Positions 1,199 to 64,000 are shown, counted from the first letter of the stretch. The stretch is DNA of 64,000 nucleotides from Candidatus Gastranaerophilales bacterium (GCA_944323685.1 CALUTJ010000003.1:67342-131341); one strand, 5' to 3'. The notes: a model not told the origin generated them from the letters alone. Translations and numbers: made by a program.

Positions 1199-2047
1199 AT
1201 GGCAATTATCGTTAACACAAACATGTCTGCATTAAAGACACAACGTAACTTGAATGACGCAACCAATGCAATGAACAAAGCAATGGAAAGAATGTCAACA
1301 GGTTACAAAATTAACAGCGCAAAGGATGACGCTGCTAATATGTACATTGCAACAAACCTTGATGTTCAAATCAGCGGTTCAAAAGTTGCAAAAAGTAACA
1401 TCACAACTGCTGCTAACATGTTGAGTATCGCAGAAGGTGACTTAGACGTTATCCTTGATAACGTTACACGTATCAGAGATTTGACAGTACAGGCCGCTAA
1501 CGGTATTTATGATGAAGATTCCATGCAAGCAATGAAAGATGAAATCTCTGCCCGTATGGCTGAAATCGACCGTATTGCCGAATCTTCAAACTTCAACGGT
1601 AAAAAACTGTTAGACGGTTCTATGGGTGATGTAAGACTTCAAGTTGGTGCTAACGCTGACGAAGCTGCAAACTGTGTAACAATCGAAGAAGCAATTTTTG
1701 CTGATTTCCACTCAGGTGAATTAGGCTTAGATGCAGGTGCTATAGATACAAGCTATCAGAGTGCCGGAGCAGCAGCAGCTTACCTCGATACAATCGATGC
1801 AGCTATTGATACAATCAACACAGCAAAAGCAGCAATCGGTGCTACAGGCAACAGACTTGATGCAGCAACCGAATCTTTGACAACAACTATTGAAAACATG
1901 ACAGCTGCTCACTCAACCATCATGGACGCAGATATTGCGGAAGAATCAGCAAACTATGTACAACAGCAGATTCTTCAACAGACTGCATCTTCACTTTTGG
2001 TTCAGGCCAACGCACTGCCTCAAATCGCATTGACGTTGATTCAATAG
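1199..2047 (+). CDS. fliC: flagellin
   Basis: N-terminus MAIIVNTNMSALKTQRNLN...MERMSTGYKINSAKDDAA and C-terminus ...ILQQTASSLLVQANALPQIALTLIQ are the conserved flagellin D0/D1 segments. AGGAG RBS; followed by a strong terminator. Confidence 0.95.
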   Translation: MAIIVNTNMSALKTQRNLNDATNAMNKAMERMSTGYKINSAKDDAANMYIATNLDVQISGSKVAKSNITTAANMLSIAEGDLDVILDNVTRIRDLTVQAANGIYDEDSMQAMKDEISARMAEIDRIAESSNFNGKKLLDGSMGDVRLQVGANADEAANCVTIEEAIFADFHSGELGLDAGAIDTSYQSAGAAAAYLDTIDAAIDTINTAKAAIGATGNRLDAATESLTTTIENMTAAHSTIMDADIAEESANYVQQQILQQTASSLLVQANALPQIALTLIQ

Positions 2048-2123
2048 AGTCAGGGATAAGTAATCTGATAAAAAACATCAAAAAATTTATAGACAAATTT
2101 ACTATAATAGGTGATGGCAACTT

Positions 2124-2157
2124 GCCCGAAGGTTTTCAAAATCTTCGGGCTTTTTTT
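2124..2157 (+). terminator. rho-independent terminator of flagellin
   Basis: GCCCGAAG-loop-CTTCGGGC followed by TTTTTTT. Confidence 0.85.
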
Positions 2158-2850
2158 GCGGATTTCCGTACGGACGACACGACCGAAGGGAGTTAGTCCG
2201 GGGAGCGAGGTATGAAGTGAGCACTTGCGTAAGCAATGTGAACGACAATACCGAGCGAGAAGGAAATCCAAGACGCGGATTTGCCTTCTTTTGCCGTTGA
2301 GCTATAGCGAAACGTGCAAAATGGCTTCACGAAAAAATCATTAGTGTTGCTTGTCTTTATTAATCTGTAAATAGTGAATAGTGCGGGCACGGAGTCGAGG
2401 CTTAAAAAGCCGAGCGAGTGCCCATGTGAACAAGGTTGATGGAGTTGAGAATTTTTAGAATAAAAATTCGAAACGGAATACTAAACCTTGTGAACGCCAA
2501 TAATCCAAGAGGCTGATTTCCGGACGGGTGCAACCCGGGGAGCTAGGACATCGAGCTGGCTTGTGCAAAGCACAAAAGGTGAAACTATCCGAGCGAGAAG
2601 GAAATCCAAGACGCGGATTTGTCTTCTTTTGCCGTTGAGTTATAGCGAAACGTGCAAAATGGCTTCACGAAAAAATCATTAGTGTTGCTTGTCTTTATTA
2701 ATCTGTAAATAGTGAATAGTGAATAGTGCGGGCACGGAGTCGAGGCTTAAAAAGCCGCGCGAGTGTCCATTTGAACAAGGTTAATGGAGTTGAGAATTTT
2801 TAGAAATAAAAATTCGAAACGGAATGCTAAACCTTGTGAACACCAATAAT
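2158..2850 (+). repeat. tandem duplication of a ~340-nt GC-rich structured unit (conserved cores 2251-2504 and 2589-2850)
   Basis: Hand alignment: the 254-nt core repeats with about 9 substitutions/indels (one is a 7-nt GAATAGT duplication). Divergent ~85-nt linkers both begin GATTTCCG. Contains several perfect hairpins. Confidence 0.85.
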
Positions 2851-4466
2851 TAAAGATTTTTTAAGTCTTTTTGTGCGCTTAAAGTAACCTGTTTTACCCC
2901 GAATTTTGATTTTAAAAATCCCAGCATGTTAGGAGTCAAAACATTCGCACTGCAAAAAGGAAGATAAATATTTTTCACCCCTAGGCATCTCAAATTGAAC
3001 AAATGAGATATGGTATGTAGATTGCAGGTCGTGATAAAAACGCTCACGGGGAATTTTTCAAAATCAATTTGTTTTTTAATATGAGATAATATTTTATAAA
3101 TCAAAGAAGAGTTAAAAAATGAGTCAAAGCTTAAAATATTGTCATTTTTAGAGGTCATGAGTGTGCTTATTACAAAATAATCAGACGGCAAATATTTTTC
3201 CAGCTCATTAAAATATTCGCTGCGCAAAGCCGCGTGGTTTAACAATCCTATAATTATAAGGTGTTTTATTTCTTTATTTTTTATTTTTTCAATAAGCCTA
3301 TCTATTTTTTGCATAACCGCATCTTCGTCATAACCGACTTTTATGCTTGTTATGCCTTGATTATTGCTATAGCCTTCGTTTTCTGAGGCATTTTGTATCA
3401 GTTTTGAAAAATCGTTGTTTTCAATACTTGTCATTCCTTTACCTGCGATAAGGTTGGTTGTAAAAATTCTGCCGCGATACAGTCTGTCTAAAAGGTATTG
3501 AAAGTTTCTTATAACAAGTACAGGCCCTTTAAAAGAAGTAAAATCATAATAGACATTATCCAGCGAGGTCTGGTAGTGGCCTTTAAGGTTAGGATAATTT
3601 TTAAATTTGGGGTAAGCGTGTGCGACAATGAGACCATTATGGGTGTAAACGTTTATATCACTTCCTTGCAAAGCTTCAAGAAGATTTTGAAAATCCTTCA
3701 AGTTTTGTCCCGAAACCAGTATGGCTTTGCCTTTGTCGACACCTATCTTTACATCGTTCAGAGATATTTTCCCGTAGTATTTTTCTTTAAACTGATGCAG
3801 TTTTTTATAAATCTGAAAATTTATCTTAGCAAAATCATTGATTTTTCTAAGCAGTTTAGATTCTTGCATAGTTGAAAAATTTAAACTGTTAAACAGTTTT
3901 AAAATGGCATCTTGTTCTTCAGTGCAGTCGTCTGTGTAGGACTTAAGTTCTTCAAGCCTTATGCTCGCGCTTTTTATCAGATTCAATATAATTTCGTAAA
4001 TGTTTTTTACGTCGGTATTTAAAATTTTATTTCTTAAAATAACTTGCTGTTCGCCCTGATTAATTATTGAGGCTATGTTAAATTTTTCAAAATTTATATT
4101 TGATTTTAAAATCTGGCAATCAATATTTTCTTTATCACAAATTGAAACATAAGAATTCTTAACCGCTTCTTTTTCGGCATGAATTTTATAAATCAAATCT
4201 TCAAACTCTTTGCGGTCAAACTCATAGCCGATTATCACAACTGACAGGTAGTTTATGATACTGTTTTTGAGTTTAAGGTTTTCATAGCCGAGTTCTTGCA
4301 TTTTTATGTAATAGTAAGTAATTTGTTTTAACTCGTAAAGCCAGACTTCCATAAGAGAATAAACAATGGGGTCTGCGCTGCAAAAGCCCTCTATTGCGCA
4401 ATCGTTGTAAGACATATTATCTCCGTAATTCAGCCCAAAATTCTGCTCTGAAAATTTGTTAAACAT
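2850..4466 (-). CDS. hybrid-cluster protein (prismane/Hcp) family homologue, apparently lacking cluster ligands
   Basis: GKAILVSGQNLKDFQNLLEALQGSDINVYTHNGLIVAHAYPKF and C-terminal LGVKNIYLPFCSANVLTPNMLGFLKSKFGV align to Hcp motifs recalled from E. coli Hcp. The canonical Cys/His/Glu ligand positions are substituted. Confidence 0.6.
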   Translation of the reverse strand: MFNKFSEQNFGLNYGDNMSYNDCAIEGFCSADPIVYSLMEVWLYELKQITYYYIKMQELGYENLKLKNSIINYLSVVIIGYEFDRKEFEDLIYKIHAEKEAVKNSYVSICDKENIDCQILKSNINFEKFNIASIINQGEQQVILRNKILNTDVKNIYEIILNLIKSASIRLEELKSYTDDCTEEQDAILKLFNSLNFSTMQESKLLRKINDFAKINFQIYKKLHQFKEKYYGKISLNDVKIGVDKGKAILVSGQNLKDFQNLLEALQGSDINVYTHNGLIVAHAYPKFKNYPNLKGHYQTSLDNVYYDFTSFKGPVLVIRNFQYLLDRLYRGRIFTTNLIAGKGMTSIENNDFSKLIQNASENEGYSNNQGITSIKVGYDEDAVMQKIDRLIEKIKNKEIKHLIIIGLLNHAALRSEYFNELEKYLPSDYFVISTLMTSKNDNILSFDSFFNSSLIYKILSHIKKQIDFEKFPVSVFITTCNLHTISHLFNLRCLGVKNIYLPFCSANVLTPNMLGFLKSKFGVKQVTLSAQKDLKNL

Positions 4467-18373: not shown

Positions 18374-18391
18374 ATATTTCAAAACAATAGT

Positions 18392-18513
18392 TGTCCGAGA
18401 AAAATTCGTGATAAGGAGCAAAGCGACGTGAACGAATTTTTGGAGTGATACATTGAAAAGGTGAGCAGTGACGGCTCGAATGCTCGAGGCGGCAACTGCG
18501 ACACTAGATTAGA
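18392..18513 (+). repeat. 122-nt interspersed GC-rich repeat, copy B (tRNA leader)
   Basis: Differs from copy A at 3 positions. Ends 5 nt before the tRNA-Arg 5' end. Confidence 0.9.
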
Positions 18514-18518
18514 TATAT

Positions 18519-18592
18519 GTGCCCGTAGCTCAGCCGGATAGAGCGTCAGCCTCCGAAGCTGAAGGTCGGGGGTTCGAATCTCCCCGGGCATA
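18519..18592 (+). tRNA. tRNA-Arg (anticodon CCG)
   Basis: Hand-folded cloverleaf: acceptor GTGCCCG/CGGGCAT (G1-U72), D arm GCTC/GAGC, anticodon arm TCAGC-CTCCGAA-GCTGA, T arm GGGGG-TTCGAAT-CTCCC. CCA is not encoded. Confidence 0.9.
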
Positions 18593-18659
18593 TTTTTAAT
18601 AAATATAATAAATAAATTTTATATTATAATTGGAAATATAAAATCAACAGGAATAAATT

Positions 18660-52659: not shown

Positions 52660-52668
52660 GTTGTTATA

Positions 52669-52790
52669 TCTAATCTAGTGTCGCAGTTGCTGCCTCGAGC
52701 CTTCGAGCCGTCACTGCTCACCTTTTCAATGTGCCACCCCAAAAATTCGTTCACATCGCTTTGCTCCTTATCCCGAATTTTTCTCGGACA
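52669..52790 (-). repeat. 122-nt interspersed GC-rich repeat, copy C
   Basis: The reverse complement differs from copy A at 5 of 122 positions. It lies between the ftsB-like stop (52803) and the terminator. Confidence 0.9.
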
Positions 52791-52802
52791 AACTTAAAAT
52801 AT

Positions 52803-60031: not shown

Positions 60032-60946
60032 TTATTTGGAGGATTTTTGCAAATTTTCAGGCAAATGAATTAAATTGCCGAGTTTTAAATCAAAGTCCTC
60101 CGGAGTAAAAATATGTGTACCTGAGGCGCTTGTAAAGGTCATTTCGCCAAAATATAATTTGTTGTCATTTTCATAAAAGTCAACTCTGACGAAAGGAAAA
60201 TCTTTTGACATAATATTTGCGAATTTGAGCATTTTTTCAAAATTATAAGGTTTAGCACAAGGAGAAAAGTTCTCGTATATGTGATTTTCTGATATTTTTT
60301 CTGGGACTAAATTCCAATTTATATCATATAAATTGCGCTTATGGTGCTTATATCTGTCTTTATCAACCCAGACATATTTAACTTCACCATTAAAACACAG
60401 GAATTTGTAGTCTTTTAAATCACCGTCATCAGCTTCGATATATTCTTCCGCAATGATTAGGGGTTTGATATTTCTATAGTGCGTTTCAAAAGACTTTAGC
60501 GAATAATCGGTGCGCAGCCATTTGTCAAAGTTTTTCTTTGCGGATTTTTTATCAAAACTGTTTTTATCCGTAACAATTATATTCCATGCGCTGCCATGGT
60601 TTGCTTTAAGTACAAACTTGTCAGGCAATTTGTCAAAATCTATATCGTCAAAGTTTTCCCAAACACCGAGAAGCGGGATAAGGTATTCTTCGCCGATTTT
60701 TTCTTTAACCCAATCACGCACAAGGTATTTGTCTGCGAGTTTTGTTTTTAATGGAGTTGAGTCGTACAGTTTAAGCCACTGTATTTTTTCGTTAAAAGTT
60801 TGTGGATTTTCAAGGTCTAACTGCTTACCCGTTTTATGAAAATAAAAATCTTTCAGGTATACGGGATAGCATTTAACAGGTACATATTTAAACAAAAAAG
60901 ATTTAAAAATTAATTTACGCAAAAGAGCACTGACTTCTTGTATCAA
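60032..60946 (-). CDS. TupA-like ATP-grasp protein (polysaccharide/teichuronopeptide-type modification)
   Basis: NPQTFNEKIQWLKLYD...VLKANHGS...DYKFLCFNGE...VDFYENDNKLYFGEMTF matches my memory of the ATPgrasp_TupA family. Confidence 0.7.
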   Translation of the reverse strand: MIQEVSALLRKLIFKSFLFKYVPVKCYPVYLKDFYFHKTGKQLDLENPQTFNEKIQWLKLYDSTPLKTKLADKYLVRDWVKEKIGEEYLIPLLGVWENFDDIDFDKLPDKFVLKANHGSAWNIIVTDKNSFDKKSAKKNFDKWLRTDYSLKSFETHYRNIKPLIIAEEYIEADDGDLKDYKFLCFNGEVKYVWVDKDRYKHHKRNLYDINWNLVPEKISENHIYENFSPCAKPYNFEKMLKFANIMSKDFPFVRVDFYENDNKLYFGEMTFTSASGTHIFTPEDFDLKLGNLIHLPENLQKSSK

Positions 60947-61070: not shown

Positions 61071-61247
61071 TCTAATCTGGTGTCGCAGTTGCCGCCTTGA
61101 GCCTTCGAGCCGTCACTGCTCACCTTTGCCTTCTTTTTCGGCTGAACTGTGGTGAAGCCTGAAAAATGGCTTCACTATGTGAACAATGTGCCACTCCAAA
61201 AATTCGTTCACATCGTTTTGCTCCTTATCACGAATTTTTCTCGGACA
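61071..61247 (-). repeat. 122-nt interspersed repeat, copy D, carrying a 57-nt insertion (61127-61183)
   Basis: The flanks align to copies A-C. The insertion TTGCCTTCTTTTTCGGCTGAACTGTGGTGAAGCCTGAAAAATGGCTTCAC... resembles 2281-2335 of the tandem repeat. Confidence 0.85.
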
Positions 61248-61474
61248 TATTAAGCTGTTATTTTATAGGATATTTTGCAGACCACAAAAATAGTCAGTCA
61301 TGCAGAACTACTCTACGAGTACCCTCCCTTGTAAGCCTCATTATATTCGGTAACAAGAGGAGCTGCAAGTTCAGCGACGACCGGGTGGGGTTGTGAAACC
61401 CACTAAAACATGTCCAAACGTCATCCTTAGAAGTGAGCGAAGCGACCTCATGAGTTTTATAAAAATATTTTACA

Positions 61475-62345: not shown

Positions 62346-64000
62346 TTATATTTTTGTTAAATCAATCAATTCACCTAATTTAAAATTAAATATGTCTGGA
62401 GTAAAGATATGTGTACCTGATGCGCTTGTAAAAGTCATTTCTCCAAAATATAATTTGTTGTCATTTTCATAAAAGTCAACTCTAACGAAAGGAAAACCTT
62501 TTGACATAATATTTGCAAATTTGAGCATTTTTTCAAAATTATAAGGTTTAGCACAAGGAGAAAAGTTGTCATATACATGTTTTTCTGATATTTTTTCTGG
62601 GACTAAATTCCAATTTATATCATATAAATTGCGCTTATGGTTTTTATATCTGTCTTTATCAACCCAGACATATTTAACTTCACCGCTAAAACACAGGAAT
62701 TTGTAGTCTTTTAAATCACCGTCATCAGCTTCAATATATTCTTCCGCAATTATTAATGGTTTGATATTTTTATAATGTAATTCTAAGCCGCCTAACAGTG
62801 CATAATTTGTATTTAACCATTTTTTTATTTTACGTTTGGCTAATTTTTTATCAAATTTGTTTTTATCAGTTACAATAATATTCCAGCTGCTTCCGTGATT
62901 TGCTTTCAGCACAAACTTGTCAGGCAATTTGTCAAAATCTATATCGTCAAAGTTTTTCCAAACACCGAGAAGCGGGATAAGGTATTCTTCGCCGATTTTT
63001 TCTTTAACCCAATCACGCACAAGGAATTTGTCTGCGAGTTTTGTTTTTAATGGAGTTGAGTCGTACAGTTTTAGCCACTGTATTTTTTCGTTAAAAGTTT
63101 GCGGATTTTCAAGGTTAAGCATTTTTCCGGTTGTAAAATAAAACCAATCTTTTAAGTATTCTTGATACATACATTCCGGTATGTATTTTAAATATTTGGT
63201 ACGATTTATTTTTATTTTTATTCCAAATATTGTAATTACTTTATAAATATTTTCTTTTTTCATTGAGAATATTTTTTGAATAAAAGATTTAATTTTTGAA
63301 GGTTTCTTTATAATTTTTTTGTAAAATTTATCTGGATTATTAATTATCAAATCTAAATTTTCTATATCTTTTTTGCTAAATAGGTTTTTATCTATTTCTC
63401 CAGTGTTTTTAGCTAATTTATAATCCTCGCTAAACTTTTTTATAAATTCTTTTTTATATTTATTATCAATTCTGCTTAATGTAAATAAGTAATTACCGTA
63501 TCTTTTAAATTGATAAACAGGTATGTACTTTTTTAATTCATTTTTGCTATTAATAATGTTTCTGATGAAGTCATATTCCTCACACATACAATAAATTTTA
63601 GACTTATCATTTACAGAAGAATTCGGATTATCCTTTCTTTTCATATAGAATGGTTTATCCAAAAAATAGACTTTTTGTGCAAACATAAAGGTTTGGAACC
63701 AAAAGCCGTTATCTTGAAAAGATGCCCCTGGAGTTTCATTATGTCTTATATTATTTTTTTTCAAAAAATCAAGATTATAAATTCCTGTCCAGGTATTCAT
63801 CGTTAAATTAAATAATTTTAAATTTTCTGAAGGGGTTAAAATTTTATTATAAAAATTAACAGTTTTATCTATTTGAGCATAATAAAATGTTTTATTTTTA
63901 TCTCCATCAAACCTGTAAAAATCAGCTTTAATAAAGTCTAAATCCAGTTCTTTAGCTTTGTTATACAATGTTTCATACATATTTAATTTAATGTAGTCAT
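62346..64000 (-). CDS. fusion protein: family-2 glycosyltransferase (N-terminus beyond window) plus TupA-like ATP-grasp
   Basis: The reading frame stays open upstream of ATG 63980 to the window edge (…DYIKLNMYETLY…, typical of the region after the GT2 DxD motif). The C-terminal 300 aa are about 90% identical to ORF 60032..60946. Confidence 0.7.
   Translation of the reverse strand, partial: DYIKLNMYETLYNKAKELDLDFIKADFYRFDGDKNKTFYYAQIDKTVNFYNKILTPSENLKLFNLTMNTWTGIYNLDFLKKNNIRHNETPGASFQDNGFWFQTFMFAQKVYFLDKPFYMKRKDNPNSSVNDKSKIYCMCEEYDFIRNIINSKNELKKYIPVYQFKRYGNYLFTLSRIDNKYKKEFIKKFSEDYKLAKNTGEIDKNLFSKKDIENLDLIINNPDKFYKKIIKKPSKIKSFIQKIFSMKKENIYKVITIFGIKIKINRTKYLKYIPECMYQEYLKDWFYFTTGKMLNLENPQTFNEKIQWLKLYDSTPLKTKLADKFLVRDWVKEKIGEEYLIPLLGVWKNFDDIDFDKLPDKFVLKANHGSSWNIIVTDKNKFDKKLAKRKIKKWLNTNYALLGGLELHYKNIKPLIIAEEYIEADDGDLKDYKFLCFSGEVKYVWVDKDRYKNHKRNLYDINWNLVPEKISEKHVYDNFSPCAKPYNFEKMLKFANIMSKGFPFVRVDFYENDNKLYFGEMTFTSASGTHIFTPDIFNFKLGELIDLTKI

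Follow-up and report, generated by a model that had tools for sequence, protein, structure and literature searches.

A head-to-tail array of dispersed, self-folding modules between fliC and hcp in a Candidatus Gastranaerophilales genome

Results

The fliC–hcp spacer

We have analysed a tandem repeat array in DNA of a Candidatus Gastranaerophilales bacterium; the window, that is, the whole stretch of 64 000 nt under analysis (GCA_944323685.1, CALUTJ010000003.1:67342-131341, positions counted from its first letter), has a G+C content of 36.7%. Two convergent genes bound the 802-nt spacer that holds the array: fliC (1199-2047, + strand), with Flagellin_N/C domains, and hcp (2850-4466, − strand), a member of the Prismane family whose product aligns end to end with solved hybrid-cluster proteins. 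A terminator scan located the intrinsic terminator of fliC at 2124-2157 (+), a 12-bp stem (2124-2150) followed by seven Ts, and the array begins at 2158, the base right after it. The genes of the window are also present on human-gut metagenome contigs, and DNA relatives are found in metagenome-assembled genomes (MAGs) labelled Candidatus Gastranaerophilales.

A first-pass annotation, made from the sequence alone, had described tandem ~340-nt units here and proposed that they are two genes for non-coding RNAs. The units themselves are confirmed: TRF has no 340-nt period in its list, but repeat search and BLAST do show two units, spanning 2158-2856. Ungapped blocks of 2251-2383 versus 2589-2721, 2367-2466 versus 2712-2811 and 2452-2510 versus 2798-2856 are 98, 93 and 88% identical, respectively, and the two units align in BLAST at 93.3% identity (268 nt with gaps counted, E = 5e-114). 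Their 5′-most ~90 nt (2158-2250 versus 2511-2588) are aligned by BLAST as well, in diverged form, with hairpins swapped between them: CGGAC...GTCCG is replaced by CGGGT-GCA-ACCCG, and TTGC-GTAA-GCAA by TTGTGC-AAA-GCACAA. The unit 2158-2510 has a minimum free energy (MFE) of −113.5 kcal/mol (z = −5.4 versus shuffles), and the region is far above chance expectation, both as a repeat and as a fold. The local elements reported earlier are in place too: the GAAGGAAATCC/GGATTTGCCTTC hairpin followed by TTTT at 2259-2292 and 2597-2630, the GGGCAC/GTGCCC stem at 2385-2390/2418-2423, and the GAATTTTT/AAAAATTC hairpin at 2449-2469 with CAAGGTT/AACCTTG around it. Two C-to-T changes between the units (GCCTTC to GTCTTC and GTGCCC to GTGTCC) are real, and the BLAST alignment puts a 1-nt insertion in a hairpin loop.

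Modules of the array

Each ~340-nt unit is made of two modules of a dispersed family, a T4 followed by a long T1. Modules of this family start with GCGGATTT and end with AATCCAAGA, and linkers of 0-2 nt, frequently CA or G, separate neighbours. Their nearly invariant ends, 5′ GCGGAUUU and 3′ AAAUCCAAGA(CA), pair and close each module, which is a self-contained single-strand fold of ~90-240 nt; the interior hairpins vary in sequence and are exchangeable, with pairing retained. The types are T1 (~133 nt), T1b (~90 nt, with the distal arm swapped for a GGACGGA hairpin), T2 and T3 (~125-133 nt) and T4 (~98-123 nt); an insert of ~105 nt, T5, between the GCGGATTT clamp and the first T1 stem produces the long T1 of ~230-236 nt.

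The first module of the array (2158-2273, +) is a T4, variant v1, running from 5′ GCGGATTT to 3′ GGAAATCCAAGA, with a closing pair GGATTTCC/GGAAATCC and two internal variable hairpins; the covariance model of T1 (R1, built from 28 T1 copies) matches it weakly, via the common frame. The second (2275-2510, +) is a long T1, identified by the alignment of long modules and by an R1 match of 124.8 bits at 2374-2510. It consists of the 5′ clamp GCGGATTT (2275-2282), a hairpin insert, T5a (2283-~2333), an AT-rich part, T5b (~2334-2383, with two AATAGTG copies), and the T1 core (2374/2383-2510), in which a P1 hairpin, a GUGAAC/GUGAAC helix with tandem G.A pairs, P2 and P3 are followed by the 3′ end CAATAATCCAAGA. 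The third module (2512-2611, +) is a T4 of variant v2 that starts with GCTGATTT, and its hairpins are unlike those of v1 yet still hairpins. The fourth (2613-2856, +) is again a long T1, with an R1 match of 98 bits at 2719-2856. The 7-nt microsatellite AATAGTG stands directly 5′ of the T1 stem, twice in the first unit (2370-2383) and three times in the second (2708-2728); this difference accounts for the spacing of 338 versus 345 nt.

The last unit had been said to end exactly at the hcp stop codon. It does reach the stop (2850-2852), but its last module extends 7 nt into the hcp frame. The 3′ end of this module is AATTAAAGA, not AATCCAAGA, and overlaps the final hcp codons and the stop; the C-terminus of Hcp is intact and of normal length in comparison with solved Hcp structures, and by hand translation a canonical module end in place of AATTAAAGA (2848-2858) would extend hcp by ~24 codons. 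The hcp gene lacks an intrinsic terminator of its own; therefore, its transcript must run antisense through the array.

Parts are exchanged between modules, since the hairpin tips GGAGUCGA...GAGCGA and GCCGUGUGA...CCCAG are found in stems of both T1 and T4, and T5a occurs elsewhere. T5a makes up the first ~55 nt of T5 (GCCTTCTTTT...AAAATGGCTTCAC), and its separate copy at 61125-61185 (+; BLAST identity 80% over 51 nt) lies inside a copy (61071-61251) of an unrelated repeat, family 2. Both insertion points of T5a are after TTT.

Alleles of the spacer

The copy number, which the first-pass annotation had proposed to compare between strains, is variable: six spacer lengths occur among contigs with identical FliC or Hcp protein. 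The 11 spacer alleles (distinct sequences) make six length classes between 456 and 809 nt, with four sequences of 456 nt, two of 580 nt, one each of 588, 591 and 802 nt (the last being the window's) and two of 809 nt. They are built as T4-LT1, T1-T4-LT1 or T4-LT1-T4-LT1 (LT1 standing for long T1) and are combinations of blocks, not integer copies of one unit; the ~130-nt block is able to stand alone directly 3′ of the terminator. One allele (L014; such numbers denote collected loci) has GGGGC/GCCCC as its first stem in place of GGGCAC/GTGCCC. An origin of the two-unit alleles by simple tandem duplication of a one-unit allele is excluded by the internal junction, the canonical CAATAATCCAAGA-G-GCGGATTT, and the 591-nt allele as a clean deletion of the 802-nt allele was rejected on alignment.

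A dispersed family

To take a census of copies, we scanned a species-representative genome collection with one exact DNA pattern from the ~130-nt block, CCATKTGAAC-N40-70-TGTGAACRNCAATAA, and considered 8-kb windows around its matches. The T1 pattern was found at 50 loci in 11 assemblies, eight of which are labelled Gastranaerophilales and the rest are unclassified or mislabelled MAGs. The MAG with the most loci, E09__bin203, has 17, many of them at contig ends, as expected because repeats break assemblies. Model R1 yields 62 full-length T1 copies in the collected loci, 57 of them distinct, and other module types match it via the shared frame. The recurring ends split the loci into head-to-tail arrays of one to four or more modules, all in direct orientation. 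In E09__bin203 an identical T1 core with a tail of ~30 nt (CGGAGTCAGTTGACGATATGAAAT) is present at at least eight loci, an indication of recent amplification. Thus, the two locus-specific non-coding RNA genes of the earlier proposal do not hold up as such, the units being composites of dispersed modules with dozens of copies in related genomes.

Two side observations concern the tail and viral contigs. The arrays of E09__bin203 and of the A102 MAG have a common ~30-nt 3′ tail (..CGGAGTCAGTTGACGATATGAAAT), always in the same orientation (loci L021, L022, L025-L027, L029, L032, L037, L042, L048, L052, L055, L056, L059, L061, L062 and L065), often 30-50 nt from the stop codon of the convergent gene, and the tail also stands 3′ of a different GC-rich element in L048 (~1080-1290) and in L056. 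Among viral contigs, there was no match to the T1 pattern, and matches to the junction pattern were mostly coincidences in coding sequence. Weak T2-like modules with the frame GCGGATTTTG...AATCCAAGA (24 bits with the T1 model) were observed on predicted viral contigs, at 8454-8572 of L079 (IMG/VR UViG_3300045988_146177) and at 3960-4084 of L072; these contigs could come from a Gastranaerophilales prophage or be misclassified.

The absence of the units from known RNA families, a check named by the first-pass annotation, was confirmed with Rfam 15. The whole window gave only tRNA-Arg at the gathering threshold, region 1900-3100 gave only chance-level matches at E ≤ 10 (to the fliC terminator or to short stretches), and five related arrays with other module types gave no match. 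A search of the literature on repeats or non-coding RNAs of Gastranaerophilales or Melainabacteria found nothing relevant. The family is lineage-restricted as far as searched and apparently undescribed.

Fold and covariation

The conserved covarying structure that the first-pass annotation had proposed to test is present in both T1 and T4; here, covariation is counted per sequence, not per event. In T1 (the alignment of R1 copies, 57 of them distinct), 95.4% of cells are paired versus 29-52% with slid partners, double changes occur in 19 of the 36 pairs, and none of 500 shuffles reaches the observed values. In T4 (an alignment of 16 copies), 17 of the 25 pairs have compensatory changes. Single modules have folding z-scores of −2.1 to −4.2. 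The first stem of T1 is found as GGGCAC/GTGCCC, GGCTGT/ACAGCC, GGAGC/GCTCC, GGGGC/GCCCC, GGACAC/GTGTCC and GGGTAC/GTACCC, and its apical hairpin as GAATTTTT/AAAAATTC, AAATTTTT/AAAAATTT, ATTTGT/ACAAAT and ATTTGC/GCAAAT. The repeated GUGAAC words pair as a helix with two central G.A pairs, which is retained in T1, T1b and T3 while the distal helix varies. A K-turn was considered for it and rejected, as the helix that holds the G.A pairs is uninterrupted and lacks the 3-nt bulge.

In T4, the base that follows GCGGATTT and the one preceding AAATCC form a pair that is C-G in 10 copies, U-A in four, G-C in one and A-U in one. From this four-way covariation, the partner of the 3′ GGAAATCC of a T4 is the GGATTTCC at its own 5′ end. 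If the partner lay in the next module, a mismatch or wobble would result at this position in L034 and L045.

The plus strand (read in the direction from GCGGATTT to CCAAGA) had been chosen as the RNA strand from the argument that the C-to-T changes preserve G-U pairing. This argument fails on the larger set: outside the 5′ clamp, the 57 distinct T1 copies contain nine G:U and 11 A:C cells. The choice of strand itself stands on other grounds. The mean MFE is −36.4 kcal/mol for the plus strand versus −31.5 kcal/mol for the other, 82% of unpaired bases on the plus strand are purines, GNRA tetraloops number six versus zero, and the G.A pairs are C/U mismatches on the opposite strand. This asymmetry of the fold suits an RNA, but it also suits a single-stranded DNA intermediate specific to one strand.

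Terminator and promoter claims

In the first-pass model each unit was a stand-alone small RNA (sRNA) gene with the promoter TTGCTT-17-AATAGT, whose transcript of ~250 nt ends at the next GAAGGAAATCC/GGATTTGCCTTC hairpin with its UUUU. The hairpin is there and is stable: at 2259-2292 (+) an 11-bp stem with one bulge links the 3′ end of T4 and the following module's 5′ end, TTTT comes next, and the structure forms in the MFE fold of the whole unit. Its role as a terminator is less clear-cut. The terminator scan of 1900-3000 called only the fliC terminator and a weak minus-strand site and left 2259-2292 uncalled (only four Ts follow it). Moreover, the hairpin competes with the covarying closing stem inside the module, as covariation ties its 5′ arm to the start of its own module, and its 3′ arm GGATTTGCCTTC is the start of T5 in the following module. 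The four Us are also paired in the T5a hairpin, at several other loci T5 comes after T1-type modules without the GAAGG arm, and the last unit has no equivalent hairpin downstream. We regard the junction hairpin as at most a weak, incidental back-up terminator.

The promoter is not supported by our data. A scan of 1900-3000 with a sigma-70-like consensus found no site, and the −35/−10 pair is not kept across copies. In favour of the first-pass model, all long modules have the AT-rich T5b with a conserved TGTAAATAGTGAATAGTG directly 5′ of the T1 core, and the plus strand folds better; still, the conserved part of T5b is this TGTAAATAGTGAATAGTG beside the T1 stem and not a −35/−10 pair, the −35 region varies among the long modules, and most T1 copies lack T5 altogether and, hence, any candidate promoter. 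The proposed RNA of ~2383-2630 also crosses module boundaries, joining a T1 core to the next T4 module, and in the commonest single-unit allele, as well as from the second unit here, with no hairpin downstream, the RNA would enter hcp antisense. Taken together, we consider the two stand-alone sRNA genes highly improbable.

Genomic context and orientation

The arrays have housekeeping genes of all kinds as neighbours; no Pfam family is enriched among 108 neighbouring open reading frames (ORFs), and no transposase stands out among them. With crude ORF calls, the upstream gene has the same orientation as the array in 19 cases and the opposite one in 11, and array orientation agrees with the bulk of genes in the 8-kb neighbourhood in 20 cases versus 18. 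In seven arrays, the first base directly follows the T-run of a co-directional terminator; these represent five independent sites (window/L060, L020/L036, L019, L053 and L058), and no array end adjoins a terminator in the reverse sense. We found no target-site duplication (no direct repeat in the flanks of 39 arrays), no inverted repeats beyond the clamp (only GGATT(T)/(A)AATCC is complementary between the ends) and no insertion sequence (IS) with matching ends in the collected loci.

These data bear on the possibility that the host retains the modules as functional RNA domains, co-transcribed with neighbouring genes or operons and acting in cis, for example as 3′-end or intercistronic stabilisers, back-up terminators, insulators or platforms for RNA-binding proteins; the modules might be cut apart at purine-rich AAGA(CA) linkers. 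Such a role is suggested by the strong covariation with many independent stem variants, by the RNA-like motifs of one strand (the tandem G.A helix in T1, T1b and T3, the GNRA loops and the purine-rich unpaired positions), by the arrays placed in sense orientation inside the rpsF-ssb-rpsR operon in two species, by the exact starts behind terminators, by upstream genes being co-oriented somewhat more often than not (19:11) and by the presence of the junction hairpin with UUUU in the MFE fold. However, about one third of the arrays point away from or against adjacent genes, with random orientation in the neighbourhood; module content at one locus varies freely among strains with identical flanking proteins; no wobble asymmetry is seen; and the near-identical copies at many E09__bin203 loci speak of recent amplification, not of a locus-specific function. 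Near-random orientation, free turnover of modules and recent bursts thus disfavour a locus-specific RNA gene and, somewhat, any host RNA function. The latter stays alive because of the RNA-like motifs and the persistence of sites; we regard it as a possible reading, though a minority one.

Another possibility, a narrower form of the mobile-DNA explanation, is that transposition takes place on folded single-stranded DNA, with an enzyme of HUH/Y1 type (IS200/IS605- or RAYT-like) or of rolling-circle type acting on the modules in trans. The conserved ends would be its recognition sites, and it would place modules 3′ of T-rich sequence with no target duplication; abutted RE-LE junctions would give head-to-tail arrays. 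This would fit a fold that is strand-specific despite near-random gene orientation, left and right ends that differ yet are conserved, the lack of terminal inverted repeats and target-site duplications, insertions right after T-runs (arrays after terminators, T5a after GGATTT and CACCTTT) and linkers of 0-2 nt. On the other side, no Y1-transposase-like ORF was detected by tblastn in ~0.6 Mb of collected loci (a weak test, made with an approximate IS608 TnpA query), no transposase family is seen among the 108 neighbouring ORFs, the 5′ flanks of most arrays end in A, not T, without a single target motif, and the modules far exceed the hairpins of REP or of IS200/IS605 ends in size and complexity. 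On balance, this mode of transposition is an attractive guess but appears improbable.

Other repeats

At three loci, a T1 module was observed 4 nt upstream of a tRNA gene (Arg, from the anticodon loop read by hand): L046 6321-6770, L066 2485-2800 and L028 228-438. In L046 and L066, a tandem duplication comprises the module, the initial 22 nt of the adjacent tRNA gene and ~70 nt of other sequence; as this duplication carries non-element DNA, it points to recombination or slippage rather than to transposition.

Family 2 is a second dispersed, structured repeat of ~130 nt (TCTAATCTAGTGTCGCAGTTGCCGCC...CACGAATTTTTCTCGGACA) with three copies in the window, two of them uninterrupted (52668-52795, + and 18391-18514, −) and the third (61071-61251, +) split by T5a. 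One window copy adjoins tRNA-Arg; further copies are present in L042, L035, L031 and L020, and family 2 has no Rfam match. A 76-aa ORF (MASLCEQC...; 61166-61396, +), which runs from an ATG within the T5a insert through the family-2 repeat, is probably spurious. The genes at 60032-60946 (−) and 62346-63980 (−) have a long near-identical 3′ portion (...DDGDLKDYKFLCF.GEVKYVWVDKDRYK.HKRNLYDINWN...), which is a recent partial gene duplication flanking the repeat-rich spacer at 61 kb.

In one MAG, a conserved C/U-rich stretch (CACTAACTAACCTACCTAAC..CCTTCCCTTCC) with a strong terminator at its end lies directly upstream of arrays (L020 ~1328-1460, − and L036 ~1882-2010, −). The stretch resembles a small RNA that carries anti-Shine-Dalgarno-like motifs, and in L020 a family-2 copy is found just upstream. 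Some arrays (L018, L030, L031 and L047) are embedded in a further repeat, with GTAGGTTGGGCATA on the left, CAC(C/T)TGCCCAAC on the right and GCCCAACCTACTCTTTCC(A/G)TCATTCTGAG nearby, which suggests that several repeat families nest in these genomes.

Discussion

The region 2158-2856 is best explained, with a probability that we put at about 60%, as a head-to-tail run of T4, long T1, T4 and long T1, that is, as members of a multi-copy modular non-coding repeat family of Gastranaerophilales, BOX/BIME/MITE-like (MITE standing for miniature inverted-repeat transposable element), that is spread at the DNA level. Selfish or structural repeat DNA is a more likely description of the array than a pair of private RNA genes.

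Under this explanation, the family would both spread and be remodelled at the DNA level. New modules would join beside existing modules or directly after the T-runs of terminators, and recombination or gene conversion between the conserved ends would lead to gain, loss and exchange of modules; at the fliC–hcp locus, such exchange would yield alleles of 1, ~1.4 and 2 units. Transcription would be passive only, as fliC read-through or as antisense transcription that starts from hcp. The conserved fold of the purine-rich plus strand could be recognised as single-stranded DNA by a trans-acting enzyme; alternatively, it could be conserved because a compact, harmless or insulating RNA is needed when the array is co-transcribed. 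The junction hairpin with UUUU may give weak back-up termination behind fliC.

Several observations weigh against this explanation. The G+C content of the family (38-60%) exceeds that of the genome (36.7%), typical MITEs being AT-rich. With no mobilising gene, target-site duplication or classical terminal inverted repeats found, mobility is something that we infer. The same sites are occupied in different species by different modules, as in the fliC terminator site (T4-LT1... in the window, T1-T4 in L060) and the ssb-rpsR spacer (four modules in L017, one in L039), and a host-level function is possible there. Features reminiscent of functional RNA are present, namely GNRA loops, internal loops rich in purines and the conserved tandem G.A helix. 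Finally, the census, which depends on a single exact pattern, has an ascertainment bias.

A bolder idea, which we consider rather unlikely, is that the modules represent a novel class of self-closing elements, tRNA-sized and made of structured RNA or single-stranded DNA, which would be amplified in a strand-specific way that targets the T-runs of intrinsic terminators and existing module ends. A module of this kind, with a three-way junction and a conserved tandem-G.A helix, would in effect be a bacterial element resembling a SINE (short interspersed element) or an HUH-dependent ‘module’ transposon with swappable hairpin tips; alternatively, processing of the arrays could yield numerous small RNAs that have one protein partner in common.

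GC-rich, strongly folding intergenic islands of this type will repeatedly be mistaken for sRNA genes or riboswitches in the annotation of MAGs of Gastranaerophilales and other Melainabacteria, and the covariance model from this analysis would flag them. The repeats also break short-read assemblies, with many copies at contig ends, and the length polymorphism of the array makes a ready strain marker. The design is unusual in having the same end clamps on each module, exchangeable hairpin tips and arrays that abut terminators. The host is an uncultured gut lineage with small genomes, with no known mobilising enzyme associated; if such an enzyme, or a host use of the fold, is found, it would make a new case beside the few persistent repeat systems of bacteria, REP/RAYT, BOX and Correia.

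Comparison with known systems

A number of identities were tried and rejected. Coding is rejected by the presence of short ORFs only and by 1-nt and 7-nt indels and covarying stems between the units; a mini-ORF of 7-10 codons from AAAATGGCT has no constant length across copies. ARAGORN finds no tRNA or tmRNA in the region (the only tRNA of the window is at 18518-18593), and the GCGGAUUU 5′ end resembles an acceptor stem only superficially. In a CRISPR array, the ‘spacers’ would not be conserved covarying families as they are here, and no cas-like family is seen among the neighbours. Substitutions between the units are not adenine-specific, which argues against a template/variable repeat pair of a diversity-generating retroelement. 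A CsrA-type GGA sponge was rejected by hand count (~4 GGA per 133-nt module versus ~3.5 expected from composition). As for a match to an IS or a known gene, which the first-pass annotation had said would speak against RNA genes, a repeat element was found in that spirit, but it is not a known one.

The attC sites of integrons (VCR type) are similar in having conserved ends, a variable interior with a kept strand-specific fold, a size of ~60-140 nt and direct orientation. However, the module ends have no RYYYAAC/GTTRRRY cores on either strand, the modules abut without cassettes, and the arrays are scattered rather than placed beside intI; an attC identity was therefore rejected.

MITEs such as Correia, ERIC, RUP and Nezha are, like our modules, non-autonomous, short, highly paired, multi-copy and intergenic, and can nest (as T5a does in family 2). 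Dispersed copies, high pairing and a non-coding nature were observed here as well, whereas terminal inverted repeats matching an IS (beyond the clamp of 5-8 nt) and target-site duplications were not, no partner IS was found and the modules are GC-richer than the genome.

REP/BIME and REPIN-RAYT systems also consist of many-copy extragenic structured repeats, often at gene 3′ ends or between convergent genes (PMC3116915; PMC3337134), and BIMEs, too, form mosaic clusters of several motif types and persist over the long term. The mobility of REPINs is attributed to a single-copy enzyme that works in trans on single strands in folded form (Bertels & Rainey 2011, PMC3116915; PMC3337134). No RAYT gene was found among the 108 neighbouring ORFs, nor by tblastn in ~0.6 Mb with the approximate IS608 TnpA query. 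In contrast to REPs, simple palindromes of 20-40 nt with a 5′ GTAG-type tetranucleotide, our modules are multi-helix folds of 90-240 nt, and they are strictly head-to-tail, unlike the inverted pairs of REPINs.

We thus place the family among small interspersed structured repeats, without assigning it to any named family, and it works most like BOX of Streptococcus pneumoniae and S. suis. This resemblance is functional only: no sequence relationship was seen and membership is not claimed. Here, each module has the same clamp and closes on itself, whereas BOX pairs boxA with boxC across the element; our modules are also larger (90-240 nt), are of at least five types and belong to a host of a different phylum. 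BOX elements share transcripts with adjacent genes and can extend into the ends of genes (Croucher et al. 2011, PMC3049150). Like the arrays described here, BOX elements, with their boxA-boxB(n)-boxC organisation, are small, modular, interspersed intergenic repeats without an internal mobilising gene or a clear target-site duplication, have extensive predicted RNA structure with one module that is largely self-folding, and vary in module number at one locus from strain to strain (PMC3049150).

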